This document shows, piece after piece, positions 26,288-57,340 of a stretch of DNA of 57,340 nucleotides. Every line of letters starts with the position of its first letter. The first letter of the stretch is position 1. Source of the DNA: an uncultured Candidatus Saccharibacteria bacterium. Lineage in GTDB: Bacteria; Patescibacteriota; Minisyncoccia; Minisyncoccales; JANBVM01. The DNA lies in NCBI GenBank assembly GCA_964514375.1, contig CAZEQH010000005.1, forward strand, positions 1-57,340, given 5' to 3'. Position numbers and translations under genes: made by a program. The notes below the pieces were generated by a model. It ran no database searches. It worked only from the letters and a program-made list of their open reading frames with translations, and was not told the origin of the DNA.

Positions 26288-26316
26288 ATTATAATATTAA
26301 AATACAATTTTGTCAA
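26288..26316 (-). promoter_or_regulatory. Consensus sigma70 promoter
   Basis: TTGACA-17-TATAAT on the minus strand. Confidence 0.8.
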
Positions 26317-26356: not shown

Positions 26357-27055
26357 ATGGAATATCCCAACCTCTCAGAGGAAAAGAAATTGTGGAAGAA
26401 AGACTTTGATAGTGTAATAGGAATAGATGAAGCGGGCAGGGGACCTTTGGCCGGTCCTGTGATGGCCGCAGCCGTACTTATTAAATCAGATTTCAAACGC
26501 AGCGCCTCCGGCATTAAAAAGCTGACCTCAGACCTCAAAGTAAGAGACTCAAAATTGCTTTCAGAAAAAAAAAGAGAGGAGATTTACGATATTCTAATAC
26601 ATTATCCTCATATAGAATGGGGGATAGGAAGGGTTTCACACAAGGTGATAGACAGGATAAATATTTTACAGGCTACCCGTCTGGCTATGAAAAGGGCCGT
26701 TATAAATCTCAATAGAAAAATTGGCAGAGGTCCGACCTCTGTCAATTTAGCAGAGGCCCGTCCTCTGTCGGGCCGGGAGTTTCTTCTGCTGGACGGCCGC
26801 ATCACATTGGACTTGGATATTCCTCAGAAATCTATAGTCAATGCTGACCGCACCGTTTTTTCCTGTGCAGCAGCCTCCGTCATTGCCAAGGTGAGGCGGG
26901 ACCGGCTCATGAAAAAGTATGCTAAGATTTATCCAGAATACGGCTTTATTTTCCATAAGGGTTACGGCACCCGACTTCACTTTGAGAGACTGGAGAAGCA
27001 CGGTTCCTGCCCCATCCACAGAAAGTCTTTTAAGCCGGTTTCAAATATAGGGTGA
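26357..27055 (+). CDS. rnhB: Ribonuclease HII
   Basis: GIDEAGRGPLAGPV, RDSK, LDG, AAASVIAKV, HKGYGT, HRKSF. Confidence 0.97.
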   Translation: MEYPNLSEEKKLWKKDFDSVIGIDEAGRGPLAGPVMAAAVLIKSDFKRSASGIKKLTSDLKVRDSKLLSEKKREEIYDILIHYPHIEWGIGRVSHKVIDRINILQATRLAMKRAVINLNRKIGRGPTSVNLAEARPLSGREFLLLDGRITLDLDIPQKSIVNADRTVFSCAAASVIAKVRRDRLMKKYAKIYPEYGFIFHKGYGTRLHFERLEKHGSCPIHRKSFKPVSNIG

Positions 27056-29915: not shown

Positions 29916-30050
29916 AGAATAATATTAAGGCCTTTCAGGCCTTTTTTATTACCTAATTCACTGTTTGGGCGGATGCCGAAGAACTCAGCCTGTTTCTCCC
30001 GTCGGGCGGGAGCGTAGTCGTTTATCCTGAACGAAGTCGAAGGAAATCCG

Positions 30051-30078
30051 TTGACAAATCATACTAAAATGTTATAAT
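30051..30078 (+). promoter_or_regulatory. Sigma70 promoter with extended -10
   Basis: TTGACA-16-TATAAT with TGn. Confidence 0.75.
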
Positions 30079-30313: not shown

Positions 30314-30595
30314 ATGAAAGAAAAAGTTTTTAAAGATGAGAAAGACATAGAAATATTCAGAAGGATCAGTATGCCTAACGTAGAAGATCTTTTGGATATA
30401 GAGATAGAAATCAAAAACCTGTCCAGTTTTTTCAACGAAGAGAGAGTTATGAAGGCGGTTGAAAAATTGATTATCCGCTTTGCCAGGATGGTTATTGTGT
30501 CTGGTATCACAACAGATCTCTTGGGGGACTGGTCAATGTTGGATAGAATAGACTCGTTTATAGAAGAGCTCAACAAAGAGTTAACATTATTTTAA
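30314..30595 (+). CDS. Hypothetical protein (93 aa)
   Basis: ORF with GAGGT SD buried in a long hairpin. Confidence 0.6.
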   Translation: MKEKVFKDEKDIEIFRRISMPNVEDLLDIEIEIKNLSSFFNEERVMKAVEKLIIRFARMVIVSGITTDLLGDWSMLDRIDSFIEELNKELTLF

Positions 30596-30782
30596 AATCT
30601 TCCTTTTTTCTTTTTTAATATTAACCCTGAGCTTGTCGAAGGGTTGACAAAGTCATCATAAACATTAATAATTTTAGTAGGCAGTAGCTTTTTTCTGAAT
30701 AGCCGTTTCTCCGAAATGATGGGAAACAGTTAGGCTGAAAGGTCGGGCTACTGGGAAAATACGAACGAATTCTGTTGGAACT

Positions 30783-42668: not shown

Positions 42669-42955
42669 TTTTTGAATCACCCCGATTTACCCATCTTTTT
42701 AGCCGGGCAAATCGGGATGATTTTCTTTGTAAAGAACAGGTAAAAGTGAATAATTTTCACTTTCTATCATAATTATAATATCAAAATATAATTTTGTCAA
42801 CAGAAACCATGAATTTTCTAAAATACCTGAATCTTCTAAATACTCACTAATTATGCATATGCATAATTAGCGCGTATCGAGAGAAAAGAAGAGGGTGGGA
42901 AAAGTAAAAAACCGGGGGTTAGCCGGTTTGCGAATCCAGAGAAAATTTAATTAGA

Positions 42956-50692: not shown

Positions 50693-51529
50693 ATGAAAAA
50701 AACATTTATTCTGCTTATTGGCATCGTTCTTGCCACATTAATTACAGGTATTTTCACGGTTTGGTATTGTCCTGCCTGCCGCCAGAAGCTTTTCCCGCAA
50801 AAGGAAGCTCCGGCAGCTACTTTCCAGGAATGTGTGGACAGAGGGTACCCTGTTATGGAGTCCTATCCCCGCCAGTGCCGGACACCCGAAGGCAGGGTGT
50901 TTATTGAAGATATAGGCAACGAACTGGAGAAAGCGGATCTCATAAGAGTTTCAAACCCTCGCCCTAATCAATCCGTAGCCAGCCCCTTAACCATTAATGG
51001 GGAAGCCAGGGGTTACTGGTTTTTCGAAGCGAGTTTTCCCGTAGTATTGTTTGATGCAGAAGGCAATACGTTAGCCCAGGGTATTGCTCAGGCTAAGTCA
51101 GACTGGATGACCGAAGACTTCGTTCCTTTCGAGTCAGAGCTTCAGTTTGCAGCTCCTGCTACTGTGGAGGGAAATCTGGTTTTAAAGAAGGATAATCCTT
51201 CCGGGCTTCCGGAAAACGATGACGAACTGATAGTGCCTGTGCTGTTCAGTCAGGTCTCGCAGCTGCCCAATCCTGCTTCCGTTTACTGCGAGCAGCAGGG
51301 TGGTACTGAGGAAAATAGGGATTTCACGGCTGGAACTAAAGGATTTTGTATTTTTGATGACGATTCTGAGTGCGACGAATGGAACCTTATGCGGGGAAAT
51401 TGCCATGCGGGAGAAATTTTCTGCAAAGATCTCTGCGGAGACAGCCAGTGCCAGGAAATAGTCTGTGCGGCAGTGGGATGTCCTTGCGCCGAAACCCCCG
51501 TTTCCTGTCCCCAGGACTGCGGAGAATAA
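50693..51529 (+). CDS. Gmad2 Ig-like plus DUF333 plus Cys-rich exported protein
   Basis: FQECVDRGYPVMESYPRQC, GYWFFEASFPV, LPNPASVYCEQQGG. Confidence 0.8.
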   Translation: MKKTFILLIGIVLATLITGIFTVWYCPACRQKLFPQKEAPAATFQECVDRGYPVMESYPRQCRTPEGRVFIEDIGNELEKADLIRVSNPRPNQSVASPLTINGEARGYWFFEASFPVVLFDAEGNTLAQGIAQAKSDWMTEDFVPFESELQFAAPATVEGNLVLKKDNPSGLPENDDELIVPVLFSQVSQLPNPASVYCEQQGGTEENRDFTAGTKGFCIFDDDSECDEWNLMRGNCHAGEIFCKDLCGDSQCQEIVCAAVGCPCAETPVSCPQDCGE

Positions 51530-51671
51530 CTCCATTATATTGTGATTATCATTAAGAACAGCCTTGAATTAAAGGCTGTTCTCATTCAAGCTCTTATTTT
51601 CGAAGAATAATTCTTCTGACGTATAAGTATTCCTGGGTGAGAGTTTTCCACAGTTTTTACACTATGGAGGG

Positions 51672-51699
51672 TTGACACTATGACAGGGTCTGTTAAGAT
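51672..51699 (+). promoter_or_regulatory. Promoter of ncRNA candidate 1
   Basis: TTGACA-16-TAAGAT with TGn extended -10. Confidence 0.6.
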
Positions 51700-51705
51700 T
51701 TAAAA

Positions 51706-51980
51706 CGCAGACGGGAAAACTATGGGATAGTCTGCAAACACACTCGACGGTAATCCGTCACTTTGTAAATTTTTTACGAAGGTCCGCAAGGAGAGGGTTA
51801 GGTCCCATACAATGTATTTTTCAACGCACAGATAGCAGGTAATACTGCCGTCAAACAAAATATATACCTCGAAAGGGGAAATCAGGCGAAAGCTAGTTAT
51901 TATATATTAAATACGTTGAAAATAAAAATACATTGAAGAGAACAATCCGAAAGGAGAATCTCAAGACCACTCCTTTTTTC
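51706..51980 (+). ncRNA. Unidentified structured RNA candidate 1
   Basis: Many helices, four GNRA tetraloops, 8-bp pseudoknot, no ORF in the track. Confidence 0.6.
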
Positions 51981-52016
51981 TTTATACTGAGTAAAACCGA
52001 AGTATTTGTTTACATT

Positions 52017-52047
52017 AAAAAAGCCGGCTCTTACGAGGGCCGGCTTT
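52017..52047. terminator. Terminator-like hairpin
   Basis: AAAGCCGGCTCT-TACG-AGGGCCGGCTTT; the longer U tract is on the minus strand. Confidence 0.7.
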
Positions 52048-52278
52048 CAGTTCTATTATTATCCGACAGAGGTCCGACCTCTGTAAATTTATGAGCAAAG
52101 GAGGGAAGTATTTGTGGTGCCGCCTTTGGCCCGCTTCGCCGTCGAATCGGGGCGAGCGATCCTCGCCCGTTGGGCGGGAGCGAAGTCGTACATCATGAGC
52201 GGCGCCGAAAGAAACCACTTGTACTGGGCGAGCGGAGGAGAAGGAGGGAATGATCTTGTGGTGAGCTGCGCCGAACCA

Positions 52279-52307
52279 TTGACAAATTCAATAATATATT
52301 ATATAAT
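52279..52307 (+). promoter_or_regulatory. Perfect consensus sigma70 promoter
   Basis: TTGACA-17-TATAAT. Confidence 0.85.
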
Positions 52308-52314
52308 AGTGATT

Positions 52315-52735
52315 ATGATAGTGAGAAAAAATACAGAAGTATTTTCCTTCTCCTTCATTATTAAAAATTAGAACCGAGTGAGAAAGGTTTTAAATAGTCG
52401 CCTAAAAATCAACCCAAGAGGGTAAAGCACGACTGTTATTACCCACGGTAGAACAACGTTGACGGTTCCTGCTGCGCTGCGGCTAGAGAGCTGAGTGAAA
52501 TGACGCCAAAGAGAGGCGCCGAAGCAGGTATTGCACTATGGCTGAGATAGCAAAGTTCCTGTTTGTTCTAGGTAGGGGAAGAAAGCGTGTAAAGTAGCGG
52601 GCTTGACTATACCATTAACTCCTCGTTTCTATTTTCCAATTTTCTTACTTTTTGAGCCTTTCAGGCAGCTGGAAAGTTCAAAAAAGTTGACAGAAGTATT
52701 AAAAAAGGACGGCATCTCAAGGCCGTTCTTTTTTT
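52315..52735 (+). ncRNA. Unidentified structured RNA candidate 2 (with an 18-codon 5' sORF)
   Basis: Lies between a promoter and a terminator; long-range helices; no long ORF. Confidence 0.5.
52701..52735 (+). terminator. Intrinsic terminator
   Basis: AAAAAAGGACGGC/GCCGTTCTTTTTT. Confidence 0.8.
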
Positions 52736-52809
52736 AATGCTTAATTTGACAAGGAAATATTTTGAAACTAAATTAAAGTAGAAACTTAAATCATACAAAA
52801 GGAGGTGGT

Positions 52810-53073
52810 ATGAAAATGGGAGAGGTAATGCTCAGGTGTGAAAAGTGCAAACAGATAGTCGATGAAGACCCGAGGTGCTACCGGGAAGGATGCGACGGAA
52901 AACTGGAAATAGTTGCCGAAGACAAAACAGCCAACGTAGTTTTTTGCAAGAAATGCAGAAGGTCTTGCCTCATCGACGATTACAAAGTGCAGTGTCCTTT
53001 CTGCGGAAGCTCAGCGATATTTTTCATAACGGCAGACCTGGCTAAAAAAGAAAGGGAAAGAGCGGCATCTTGA
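52810..53073 (+). CDS. Double zinc-ribbon small protein
   Basis: CEKC, C-x4-C, CKKC, CPFC; AAGGAGGT SD; own promoter TTGACA-17-TAAATT at 52746-52774. Confidence 0.7.
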   Translation: MKMGEVMLRCEKCKQIVDEDPRCYREGCDGKLEIVAEDKTANVVFCKKCRRSCLIDDYKVQCPFCGSSAIFFITADLAKKERERAAS

Positions 53074-53091
53074 ATGCCGCCCTTTATTTTC

Positions 53092-53502
53092 TTATTGTCT
53101 TCTAGCTAAGGAAACGACTTTTGATTTGATGATATCCCTGATCTTCCGGACGCCATCCATGTTCTCGTGGTAGGGGTCTTTTATCTCCCAGAATACAGCC
53201 TTCTTGCTATTCAGCACAAAATCCGGGCAATATTGTTTCTGACACATAACAATTACTTTATCGCTTTCGTCTATCATTCCCTTGGTAACAATCTTCACTT
53301 TTTTATCGGACACATCAATTCCTTCCTCTTTCATTACTTCAATAATGTCTTCTGTGGGATGAGCGTATCTCTCAGGCGTTGTGGAGTCTACGCCCGCACT
53401 TATGGCTTCCCCGGAGCTGGTCAGATGATTGTAAAATGCCTCTGCCATCTGGCTCCTTCCTATATTCCCGCGGCAAATGAAAAGCATTTTTTTGTCACTC
53501 AT
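53092..53502 (-). CDS. Low-MW protein-tyrosine phosphatase / ArsC family
   Basis: FICRGNIGRSQMAEA P-loop, W-x-I-x-DP. Confidence 0.9.
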   Translation of the reverse strand: MSDKKMLFICRGNIGRSQMAEAFYNHLTSSGEAISAGVDSTTPERYAHPTEDIIEVMKEEGIDVSDKKVKIVTKGMIDESDKVIVMCQKQYCPDFVLNSKKAVFWEIKDPYHENMDGVRKIRDIIKSKVVSLARRQ

Positions 53503-53608
53503 AATTTGTATTACAAATAATACGATTAATAATTAAAGATAATTAATAGTTATGACTTTGGCAAATTCTTAATTTAAAAAAGAAAAAAATCTGATAATAT
53601 TAAAGCAT

Positions 53609-54325
53609 ATGGACAAATCTATTACCATATTATCGACCTTTGCCCAGGATAAAATTATCAATAAAGATGCGGGAACGGAAAGAATCGTAAGAGGCGGTCC
53701 TGCCTTTTATATTTCCAAAGTTTTTGAGGAAGAAAAATTACCATTCAATCTCATAACGGCTTCCAATGCCGAAGTAGAGATATTGATAAAAGAGGACAGT
53801 GAGAAAGGAAGATTAGTGAAAAAACCCGTTATTAAGAAAGTAGATTTTATTAAAATCAAAACTCCTTTTCTTCTGATTTCCACTATTCTGGATGATTTCG
53901 ATTTAGAAAATATATCTGCTTTTAAGGGTAAGGTGTTTTTAGATATACAGGGGTATGTGAGAGACGGAGAGAGATTTGGAGGAAAAAAATTGTACAATCT
54001 TCAGACGAAAGTACAGTCTTCGATATTCTGCTTAAAGGGAACGGAAGAGGAACTGAATTATATCCCTAGGAATTGGCTAACCTCCCAGAAGAAAAAAATT
54101 CTAATTATCACCAAGGGAAAGTCTGGATGTATTTTATTTACATCTGGAGAAGAGTTTGAGTTGAATGTTTCAAGAAAAATAGTTTCTCACAATACTATCG
54201 GAGCCGGAGACACTTTTTTTGCTTATATTATCAGTCACTTTATCAATACCAATAACATCAAGGAGAGTATAGGCTATGCCATTGAGAAAACCTCGGATTT
54301 TTTACTCTCTAAAAGCAGTCCATGA
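53609..54325 (+). CDS. PfkB-family carbohydrate/nucleoside kinase
   Basis: GGPAFY, IITKGKSG, NTIGAGDTF. Confidence 0.85.
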   Translation: MDKSITILSTFAQDKIINKDAGTERIVRGGPAFYISKVFEEEKLPFNLITASNAEVEILIKEDSEKGRLVKKPVIKKVDFIKIKTPFLLISTILDDFDLENISAFKGKVFLDIQGYVRDGERFGGKKLYNLQTKVQSSIFCLKGTEEELNYIPRNWLTSQKKKILIITKGKSGCILFTSGEEFELNVSRKIVSHNTIGAGDTFFAYIISHFINTNNIKESIGYAIEKTSDFLLSKSSP

Positions 54326-57059: not shown

Positions 57060-57109
57060 AGTAAGCAGTTGTAAGAAATTTGAAAATTAGAAAATCCATA
57101 ACTAAGTCC

Positions 57110-57329
57110 CGGGTTTTAAATTCGGGGTTGGGCTTAGTTCTCTCGATTTACGAGAAGGATGGCCTTTGCGACAGTGAAGGCCCGGCAGTCTCCGTAACCA
57201 AGGACTAACTGATGCTGCTATCAGCAAAGTCGGTAAAAGTGATTTTGATTCGTTTTACTGACGAATTTTTTCGTTATAACGGGTTAAAATAAAAAAGGTG
57301 GCACCGCGGGAAATACCTCTCGCCCTTTT
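57110..57329 (+). promoter_or_regulatory. T-box riboswitch leader (regulated gene lies outside the window)
   Basis: AAGG-TGGCACC-GCG...CTCGCCCTTTT antiterminator at 57293-57329, preceded by multiple hairpins. Confidence 0.8.
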
Positions 57330-57340
57330 GTCCAAGCTTT

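Follow-up and report, generated by a model that had tools for sequence, protein, structure and literature searches.

What does a unit with its own promoter and terminator encode when it lies in a stretch without genes? This question is raised by positions 52279-52735 of contig CAZEQH010000005.1, a DNA of 57,340 nucleotides from an uncultured Candidatus Saccharibacteria bacterium (GCA_964514375.1), which was analysed over its full length and is called the window below. The unit, referred to here as candidate 2, lies inside a 1.28-kb stretch (51530-52809) that is flanked by a gene for a secreted DUF333/Gmad2 protein and by an orphan gene for an 87-aa protein. A preliminary description had read it as a standalone transcript with a leaderless 18-aa open reading frame (ORF) and a multibranched RNA, possibly paired in function with a second RNA, candidate 1, encoded just upstream. 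We favour, with a probability of roughly 0.55, the view that 52279-52735 is a self-contained gene for a ~420-nt structured non-coding RNA (ncRNA), which would belong to an undescribed family of narrow distribution in a host of the candidate phyla radiation (CPR, Patescibacteria).

The comparison on which this view rests was obtained by a metagenome scan with the downstream 87-aa protein, which gave two loci, L001 and L002. L001 is identical to positions 50736-53735 of the window, thus across the RNA, and is ~20% divergent beyond. The divergence starts at 53736, inside a PfkB-family gene, and the last ~260 nt of L001 match 57083-57340 at 90%. This locus is a sharp recombination mosaic with a rearrangement between co-occurring strains and is uninformative for the RNA. 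L002 is a diverged homologue from the same salt-marsh metagenomes, with the same promoter, 5′ hairpin, structured domain and terminator. A third variant, found in Logan contigs, is L002-like.

Across the domain, the window and L002 share 59% identity, and helices P2-P5 (see the feature table) are nonetheless kept. RNAalifold was applied to window:52314-52625 and L002:360-665. The resulting consensus contained 65 pairs, 13 of which had changed on both sides and were still paired; ten of these 13 fell in P2-P5. When the 3′ partners were slid by 1-3 columns as a control, 0-1 compensatory pairs and 42-48% pairing were left. Because these two sequences had also served to derive the structure, a column-shuffle null was run as well (300 alignment shuffles, with alifold rerun). 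It gave 5.0±2.2 compensatory pairs (maximum 12), and the consensus energy of -42.5 stood against -15.5±3.9 in the null (z = -6.9). Together, the compensatory changes, the shuffle null and the consensus energy indicate that the domain is a conserved RNA structure. The plus strand folded better than the minus strand (-54.7 versus -46.3 kcal/mol, the plus-strand fold using 10 G-U cells), in line with the direction in which the promoter and terminator point. The preliminary description had proposed a multibranched RNA within its own promoter-terminator unit and had named homologues lacking compensatory changes as evidence against it; the homologue L002 brought 13 such pairs in its favour.

The individual helices differ in what this comparison says about them. 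All elements listed in the preliminary description were found at or near the positions given for them. The inner helix TAGAACAA (52449-56)/TTGTTCTA (52563-70) is part of P4, has the counterpart GGCAGUGA/UCGCUGCC in L002 and is strongly supported by covariation there. The proposed CCTGC (52468-72)/GCAGG (52524-28) helix of 5 bp lies in the apex, occurs at chance level and is not kept in L002. The CGCC (52504-07)/GGCG (52515-18) helix is likewise in the apex; it is invariant in L002 and was not shown to exceed chance. The sequences ATAGTC-GCC (52394-52402), GGC-TT-GACTAT (52600-52610) and CGACTGT (52430-36) are also present and were not shown to exceed chance. CGACTGT had been suggested as an alternative partner of ATAGTCG. 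Of this pairing only six of seven are kept in L002, and it would compete with P2, which shows three compensatory pairs. As for the closing helix ATAGTC-GCC/GGC-TT-GACTAT, its core corresponds to P1 and is invariant in L002, whereas its outer part, AUA (52394-96)/UAU (52608-10), is present in the window only. P1 is absent from the RNAalifold selection. Its core shows no variation, so covariation cannot test this helix, neither for nor against. The first two bases of the invariant stretch CCUAAAAAUCAAC are the last two of the P1 5′ strand.

The third variant adds to this picture. After the position equivalent to L002:455 it carries a 12-nt insertion, CCAGGGGGGGGT, which restores the P1a hairpin, and 79 nt of its apex are replaced while the rod is kept. 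A hairpin that is present or absent and a swapped apex on a retained rod are typical of real structured RNAs.

The perfect TTGACA-17-TATAAT promoter and the ATG at the expected start, both reported earlier, are present, and the predicted transcription start is ~52314-52315, with the ATG at 52315 placed 7 nt past the -10 box. Shuffled sequences predict 0.01 perfect TTGACA-N17-TATAAT sites for the window, which in fact contains three, a ~300-fold excess; these are therefore regarded as real promoters. The candidate-2 promoter is the same as that of L002 at 28 of 29 positions (97%). The strong terminator claimed for the 3′ end is a canonical one with 100% identity in L002, and it is read as bidirectional because its minus-strand reading is listed in the consensus scan. 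The promoter-like sites of the minus strand are weak (9-10/12). The next gene does have a promoter-like site of its own, as had been stated.

On these grounds, the following course may be suggested. The consensus sigma-70 promoter would start a transcript at ~52315, the first 44 nt of which, the former 18-aa ORF, would fold as a stable 5′ stem-loop (P0). An A/U-rich linker would then lead to the conserved core, the P1-P5 rod with its variable apex, and the RNA would end with a pyrimidine-rich tract, a long A/U-flanked hairpin and the intrinsic terminator. In general terms, candidate 2 has what is expected of an independently transcribed structured ncRNA, namely a promoter and a terminator of its own, helices backed by covariation and the lack of any conserved ORF, with transcription being predicted.

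It might also be supposed that the transcript is coding or has a dual function, with the 18-aa ORF MIVRKNTEVFSFSFIIKN being translated. This is favoured by the ATG, whose position coincides with the +1 predicted for a perfect promoter. In L002, however, the ATG is replaced by GTG, and a 2-nt insertion brings a TAA after seven codons. The ORF is at chance level, and its peptide has no recognisable features. Its nucleotides are kept as the arms of P0, so that conservation tracks pairing rather than codons: all 18 pairs are kept in L002, two of them as A-U to G-U changes, with none compensatory and none broken. It is the pairing between GAGAAAAAAUAC and GUAUUUU..UUCUC that is conserved, at 77% identity over the 5′ hairpin, and the loop differs (AGAA in the window, AUAAAG in L002). 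No ORF is conserved between the window and L002 on either strand. Since the frame is broken, the conservation is that of P0 pairing and no frame is shared, the small-peptide idea was rejected, and translation of the ORF is regarded as highly improbable. The same ORF forms, in frame, the last part of a longer GTG ORF of 85 aa (52114-52371), which reads across the promoter. This 85-codon frame, called as a gene by JGI in contig L088 (L088:1379-1636), runs through a GC-rich element, the promoter and the 5′ hairpin. It has no Pfam match, and the corresponding frames of L002 give unrelated peptides; it is probably a spurious gene call.

Regarding known RNA classes, a cmscan search with the 4227 models of Rfam 15 at gathering thresholds found only tRNAs and an L10 leader, all elsewhere in the window. 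In a permissive E-value mode (a 1.6-kb region, a 350-nt core and L002), the matches were sub-threshold, driven by the terminator or hairpins, and inconsistent between the window and L002. The check by cmscan and nhmmer that had been recommended thus brought neither an Rfam family nor the RNA in related loci. The candidate-2 RNA family is not in Rfam and is so far confined to one salt-marsh population. The raiA motif RNA, ROOL, OLE, GOLLD and HEARO are orphan large structured bacterial ncRNAs, all of them Rfam families. Like these RNAs, candidate 2 is intergenic and noncoding, has its own promoter and terminator, covarying helices and uninformative neighbours; unlike them, it has no cmscan match and comes from one population instead of many genera. 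It is also smaller than OLE, ROOL and GOLLD. The 6S RNA is similar in being a highly paired rod of ~200 nt that is expressed from a strong sigma-70 promoter and may arise by trimming of a longer transcript. However, no cmscan match to RF00013 and its relatives was obtained at E <= 10, and candidate 2 has a ~90-nt, probably branched apex with several small hairpins where 6S RNA, a single extended hairpin, has one large central bubble with a closing stem on one side and a terminal stem on the other.

The main rival explanation is based on L002, in which ~290 extra nt are found between the domain and the 3′ hairpin (the counterpart site in the window is ~52614/52615). This segment consists of a diverged second copy of the pyrimidine tract and hairpin together with a 64-codon ORF, so that the order in L002 is promoter, 5′ hairpin, domain, pyrimidine tract, hairpin 1, ORF, pyrimidine tract, hairpin 2 and terminator. 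The ORF product of 64 aa (L002:746-940; 82 aa from a TTG start, L002:692-940) has two hydrophobic/transmembrane (TM) segments. It is possible, though tentative, that the RNA is a cis-regulatory leader of this protein, either riboswitch-like or a protein-binding 5′ untranslated region (UTR). The L002 arrangement would then be ancestral, the window would have lost the ORF by recombination between the tract and hairpin copies, and its RNA would be an orphan leader, perhaps decaying or re-used. In L002 the domain and the ORF share one promoter-terminator unit, as riboswitches and other structured 5′ leaders do with small membrane or transporter genes. Contigs of the third variant extend from the domain to the start of the ORF region, and another contig from the same run matches the ORF. 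The ~290-nt indel is bounded by direct repeats, the tract and hairpin copies, which is the pattern expected of recombination between such repeats; and the domain of the window folds less well for its composition than that of L002. A 5′-UTR location of the domain holds for L002 and, as far as the contigs reach, for the third variant, but not for the window. The term standalone in the preliminary description is accordingly right for this genome and not for L002 or, as far as its contigs reach, the third variant, in which a longer unit begins with the RNA and carries a small membrane ORF. Unlike riboswitches, candidate 2 matched no known aptamer class and has no recognisable platform, and its unit in the window is without an ORF. 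Inspection of folds and repeats revealed no expression platform and no pairing that would link the domain to the terminator or a ribosome-binding site. The ribosome-binding site of the ORF is weak (the nearest GGAGG is ~35-40 nt 5′ of the ATG). No homologue of its product was found among 5.8 billion proteins, nor any Pfam, PADLOC or PHROG match, and the ORF may therefore not be a real gene. Either the RNA is the leader of this ORF and has been orphaned in the window, or the ORF is a passenger specific to its lineage. Because the window keeps the promoter, all P0 and P2-P5 pairs, including the covariation-supported helices, and the terminator, the standalone ncRNA is ranked first and the leader second. 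Two other ways of viewing the L002 segment were considered. Type I toxin-antitoxin systems (hok/sok-like) combine an antisense RNA with a small hydrophobic ORF that follows a long, folded 5′ UTR. L002 resembles them in its hydrophobic ORF behind a folded 5′ UTR and differs in having no evident antisense RNA gene, two TM segments, no homologue and an ORF that is missing from the window. An integron-like cassette, with attC-like hairpins around the L002 ORF, was rejected, as GTTRRRY core sites, an integrase and further copies of the hairpin in the window are all missing.

A further alternative looks downstream and treats the RNA as an attenuator or leader of the 87-aa zinc-ribbon gene, read-through of the terminator setting the level of that gene. 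The RNA and the gene adjoin in both lineages, are both orphans and share the same narrow distribution. The terminator lies just 75 nt 5′ of the start codon, and the stretch from the terminator to the UTR is 95-100% identical between the lineages. The layout recalls type III toxin-antitoxin systems (ToxIN-like), in which a promoter, an ncRNA with tandem repeats, a terminator and a protein gene for an endoribonuclease toxin follow in order; the window has the same gene order, with the 87-aa gene in place of the protein. Nevertheless, it has no tandem RNA repeats, the zinc ribbon matches no PADLOC or Pfam toxin and no family of defence or phage proteins, a second promoter-like site (10/12) stands between the terminator and the gene, and no antiterminator pairing was seen on inspection. 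The high identity of the 3′ part can be explained by mosaic recombination in the population. We consider an attenuator quite unlikely. Absence of any function is also unlikely, if a little less so: the RNA would then be part of a hypervariable recombining intergenic island, and its apparent conserved structure a by-product, or else what is left of an element that is mobile or decaying. This would fit the high variability of the 1.28-kb region between strains, the near-identical promoter and hairpin modules beside other sequences, the different gene after DUF333 in a relative, and the tiny distribution. On the other hand, 13 compensatory pairs at 59% identity are far above the null and hard to obtain without selection on pairing. 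Moreover, promoter and terminator are both intact, the locus is free of transposase and integrase genes and of terminal inverted repeats, and the 57-kb window holds no further copy of the RNA.

Several points weigh against the self-contained ncRNA gene as well. The domain of the window taken alone has a folding z of -1.26, no better than shuffles (L002, -3.32), so that energy alone does not show the domain to be special; the z of -3.3 for the whole transcript is owed mostly to the terminator and to the 5′ and 3′ hairpins. The compensatory counts amount to one comparison of two independent sequences, the third being partial and itself a mosaic of one of the two, and compensation was counted in the very sequences that had yielded the structure. 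No homologue of the RNA was found with a covariance model in 84 related CPR loci (~90 loci when nhmmer is included) or by pattern scans of IMG/VR and GTDB, and selection over a long time span is therefore unproven. Mosaic recombination in the population means that identical stretches cannot be read as constraint. Both the transcription of the RNA and its action as RNA are points that we infer from the sequence. Finally, the RNA of L002 precedes a small ORF, which fits a role in cis as well as one in trans.

If candidate 2 is a self-contained ncRNA, it would most likely act in trans as a scaffold that binds a protein or a ligand, stabilised by the 5′ hairpin and the terminator. A role in trans is favoured because this genome keeps the promoter, fold and terminator intact with no ORF in the unit. 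It is rather unlikely, yet worth stating, that a class of regulatory RNA specific to the CPR uses the domain as its sensor or scaffold, be it as a new aptamer or as the RNA component of a small ribonucleoprotein, in a modular recombining locus built as promoter, cargo, hairpin and terminator. The cargo would then have been swapped between lineages (RNA alone, RNA with a membrane ORF, other sequences), and candidate 2 with the equally well-folded candidate 1 would make this region of an ultra-small symbiotic bacterium a hotspot of innovation based on RNA. To our knowledge, the non-coding RNAs of Patescibacteria are almost unexplored, and the literature searches yielded nothing specific on structured RNAs of the CPR. 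These bacteria have tiny genomes and few regulators, so it is unusual that a 1.3-kb intergenic region should hold two strongly structured RNAs, each with its own promoter, and this points to functions of RNA that are worth retaining. Should the domain bind a ligand or protein, it would represent a new structured-RNA class and offer a handle on regulation in uncultivated symbionts. At present, it is a well-documented candidate for a wider covariance-model search and for metatranscriptomics.

Table. Features of the candidate-2 locus and its two flanking genes (positions in the window).
Feature	Position	Strand	Remarks
Sigma-70 promoter TTGACA-17-TATAAT	52279-52307	+	12/12 match; TTGACA 52279-52284, TATAAT 52302-52307
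P0, 5′ terminal stem-loop	52315-52358	+	18 bp (52315-52334/52339-52358), 2-nt bulge, loop AGAA
18-codon ORF	52315-52371	+	judged incidental
A/U-rich linker between P0 and domain	52359-52393	+	poorly conserved: 53% identity, 6 gap columns
Structured domain (~215-220 nt)	52394-52610	+	rod of stacked helices P1-P5 with variable, probably branched apex
P1	5′ strand GUCGCC 52397-52402, 3′ strand 52600-52607 (GGC-UU-GAC)	+	in the minimum-free-energy folds of both sequences
Invariant stretch	52401-52413	+	longest in the domain; mostly joins P1 to P1a/P2
P1a, optional hairpin CCC-AAGA-GGG	52413-52422	+	missing in L002; CCC-AGGGG-GGG in the third variant
P2	5′ strand 52427-52437, 3′ strand 52582-52590	+	9 bp, 3 compensatory pairs versus L002
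P3	5′ strand 52442-52444, 3′ strand 52576-52578	+	3 bp, 1 compensatory pair
P4	5′ strand 52449-52458, 3′ strand 52560-52570	+	10 bp, 5 compensatory pairs and 1 single compatible change
P5	5′ strand 52461-52463, 3′ strand 52555-52557	+	3 bp, 1 compensatory pair
Apex (~90 nt)	52464-52554	+	conserved blocks CUGAGUGA, (G)GCGCC-loop-GGCGCC hairpin and GGUAUU; remainder varies among all three variants
3′ strands of P5, P4, P3, P2, P1, in order	52555-52610	+	
Pyrimidine-rich tract (AACUCCUCGUUUCUAUUUUCCAAUUUUCUUAC)	52617-52648	+	
3′ A/U-flanked hairpin ACUUUUUGAGCCUUUCAG-GCAG-CUGGAAAGUUCAAAAAAGU	52647-52687	+	no terminator on either strand
Intrinsic terminator AAAAAAGGACGGC-AUCUCAAG-GCCGUUCUUUUUUU	52701-52735	+	13-bp hairpin, then U-run; bidirectional
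Promoter-like site TTGACA-17-TAAATT of the next gene	52746-52774	+	10/12 match
Gene for secreted DUF333/Gmad2 protein	50693-51529		one flank of the gene-free stretch
Orphan gene for 87-aa double zinc-ribbon protein	52810-53073		other flank of the gene-free stretch

The 3′ hairpin has 95% identity in L002, and further variants of it occur in Logan contigs. Near-identical promoter and hairpin modules adjoin other sequences in the same metagenomes; one contig, for instance, shares the promoter and the pyrimidine tract and carries a cargo of 168 nt. The segment comprising the 3′ hairpin, terminator, next promoter and 5′ UTR (52649-52809 versus L002:949-1124) is 95-100% identical, whereas its flanks differ by 12-40%; this could be due to strong constraint or to a recent recombination tract.

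The window sequence was found in salt-marsh and marsh metagenomes only, in some of which the organism is covered several-fold to tens-fold, and four further contigs (L096, L089, L090 and L097) represent its strain or a near-identical one. A look for RNA-seq among the listed runs, both for the RNA and for the rplJL region of the organism, gave none. Relatives of the DUF333/Gmad2 neighbour gene occur in metagenome-assembled genomes (MAGs) of Patescibacteria (CPR, Parcubacteria-type). This gene led to 80 CPR loci, and the RNA was found in none of them with nhmmer or the covariance model R1. The closest genome contig, L007 (85%), stops 31 nt past the DUF333/Gmad2 gene. In L094, a member of the DUF333 cluster with 75-77% nucleotide identity, a DUF2178 membrane-protein gene directly follows the DUF333 gene instead, so that the RNA-bearing island appears to be lineage-specific. 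On the other side, the 87-aa gene is followed by a convergent gene for an LMW phosphatase/ArsC-like protein. Among the LMWPc homologues, the contig of an 82% relative stops at the gene, and relatives at 61-62% are without the RNA. No relatives of the 87-aa gene were found in genomes. As for the pattern scans of GTDB, CCTAAAAATCAAC..CTGAGTGA gave four matches, which were inspected and rejected as chance; the 29-nt promoter gave one coincidental match ahead of an ordinary gene in a Bacilli MAG; and the terminator 21-mer gave no match. The RNA had no blastn match in phage and plasmid collections, and the conserved single-stranded blocks had no complementary targets within the window.

The 87-aa protein contains four CxxC-type motifs, which form a double zinc ribbon. 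It had no Pfam, PADLOC or PHROGs match, and in the 5.8-billion-protein collection it is represented by two 90% clusters only, both of which come from the salt-marsh samples considered here. The protein and the RNA have matching distributions.

The other two perfect promoters of the window are located at 26288-26316 (-) and 42772-42800 (-), and they are nearly alike across the spacer (TTGACAAAATTnTATTTTnATATTATAAT). In the same metagenomes, the 30-mer of the candidate-2 promoter precedes several unrelated sequences. Strong promoters of this genome share extended sequence, which probably explains this occurrence. To read the shared promoter as the sign of a mobile cassette was rejected, as the strong promoters of the genome are near-identical to one another generally.

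The 1.28-kb intergenic region varies strongly among strains, in the copy number of a GC-rich repeat, the ~290-nt indel and the 79-nt replacement. The GC-rich stretch (52099-52275, 64% GC in an AT-rich genome) lies immediately 5′ of the promoter and contains the direct repeat AAGGAGGGAAnnAnnTTGTGGTG at ~52099-52120 and 52241-52263; L002:100-320 consists of two longer copies of a related unit. A 52-nt part of it (52163-52214) has 79% identity to positions 29995-30046 of the window. There, a GC-rich copy (29960-30046) is likewise found directly 5′ of a strong promoter (30051-30078), which leads into a strongly hairpinned leader of ~235 nt and an ORF at 30315. Motifs resembling CCTGAG...TCGAAGG occur repeatedly directly 5′ of -35 boxes, for example at 30627-30643. 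In addition, a palindromic hairpin, CAGAGGTCCGACCTCTG followed by (T/C)AAATTT, is located at 52065-52091, 3′ of the candidate 1 terminator. It is found again as two tandem copies at 26725-26770 (96% over 25 nt), is also kept at L002:68-92 and looks like a REP-like repeat.

The functional pairing of candidate 1 and candidate 2 that had been put forward is unproven. The duplex energy of the two RNAs was no better than that of shuffled controls. The terminator of candidate 1 adjoins the RNA in L002 as well, these genomes being close relatives. The 3′ ends of both units have motifs in common (ACnGAAGUAUU...AUUAAAAAAG with a GC hairpin, and AUCUCAAGnCC loops), which hints at duplicated terminator modules rather than pairing. 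Candidate 1 itself (promoter-terminator unit 51672-52047; RNA ~51706-52050) has no Rfam match. Inside it, at ~51952-51979, lies a hairpin that looks like a terminator and is similar in loop and tail to that of candidate 2. It folds far better than shuffles (z = -6.3), and in a strain variant GUAAA-UUU-UUUAC (51765-51777) is replaced by GUAG-CUUG-CUAC, a compensated hairpin. Based on the folding and this variant, candidate 1 is also probably real. The same variant improves the -10 box of candidate 1 from TAAGAT to TAATAT.

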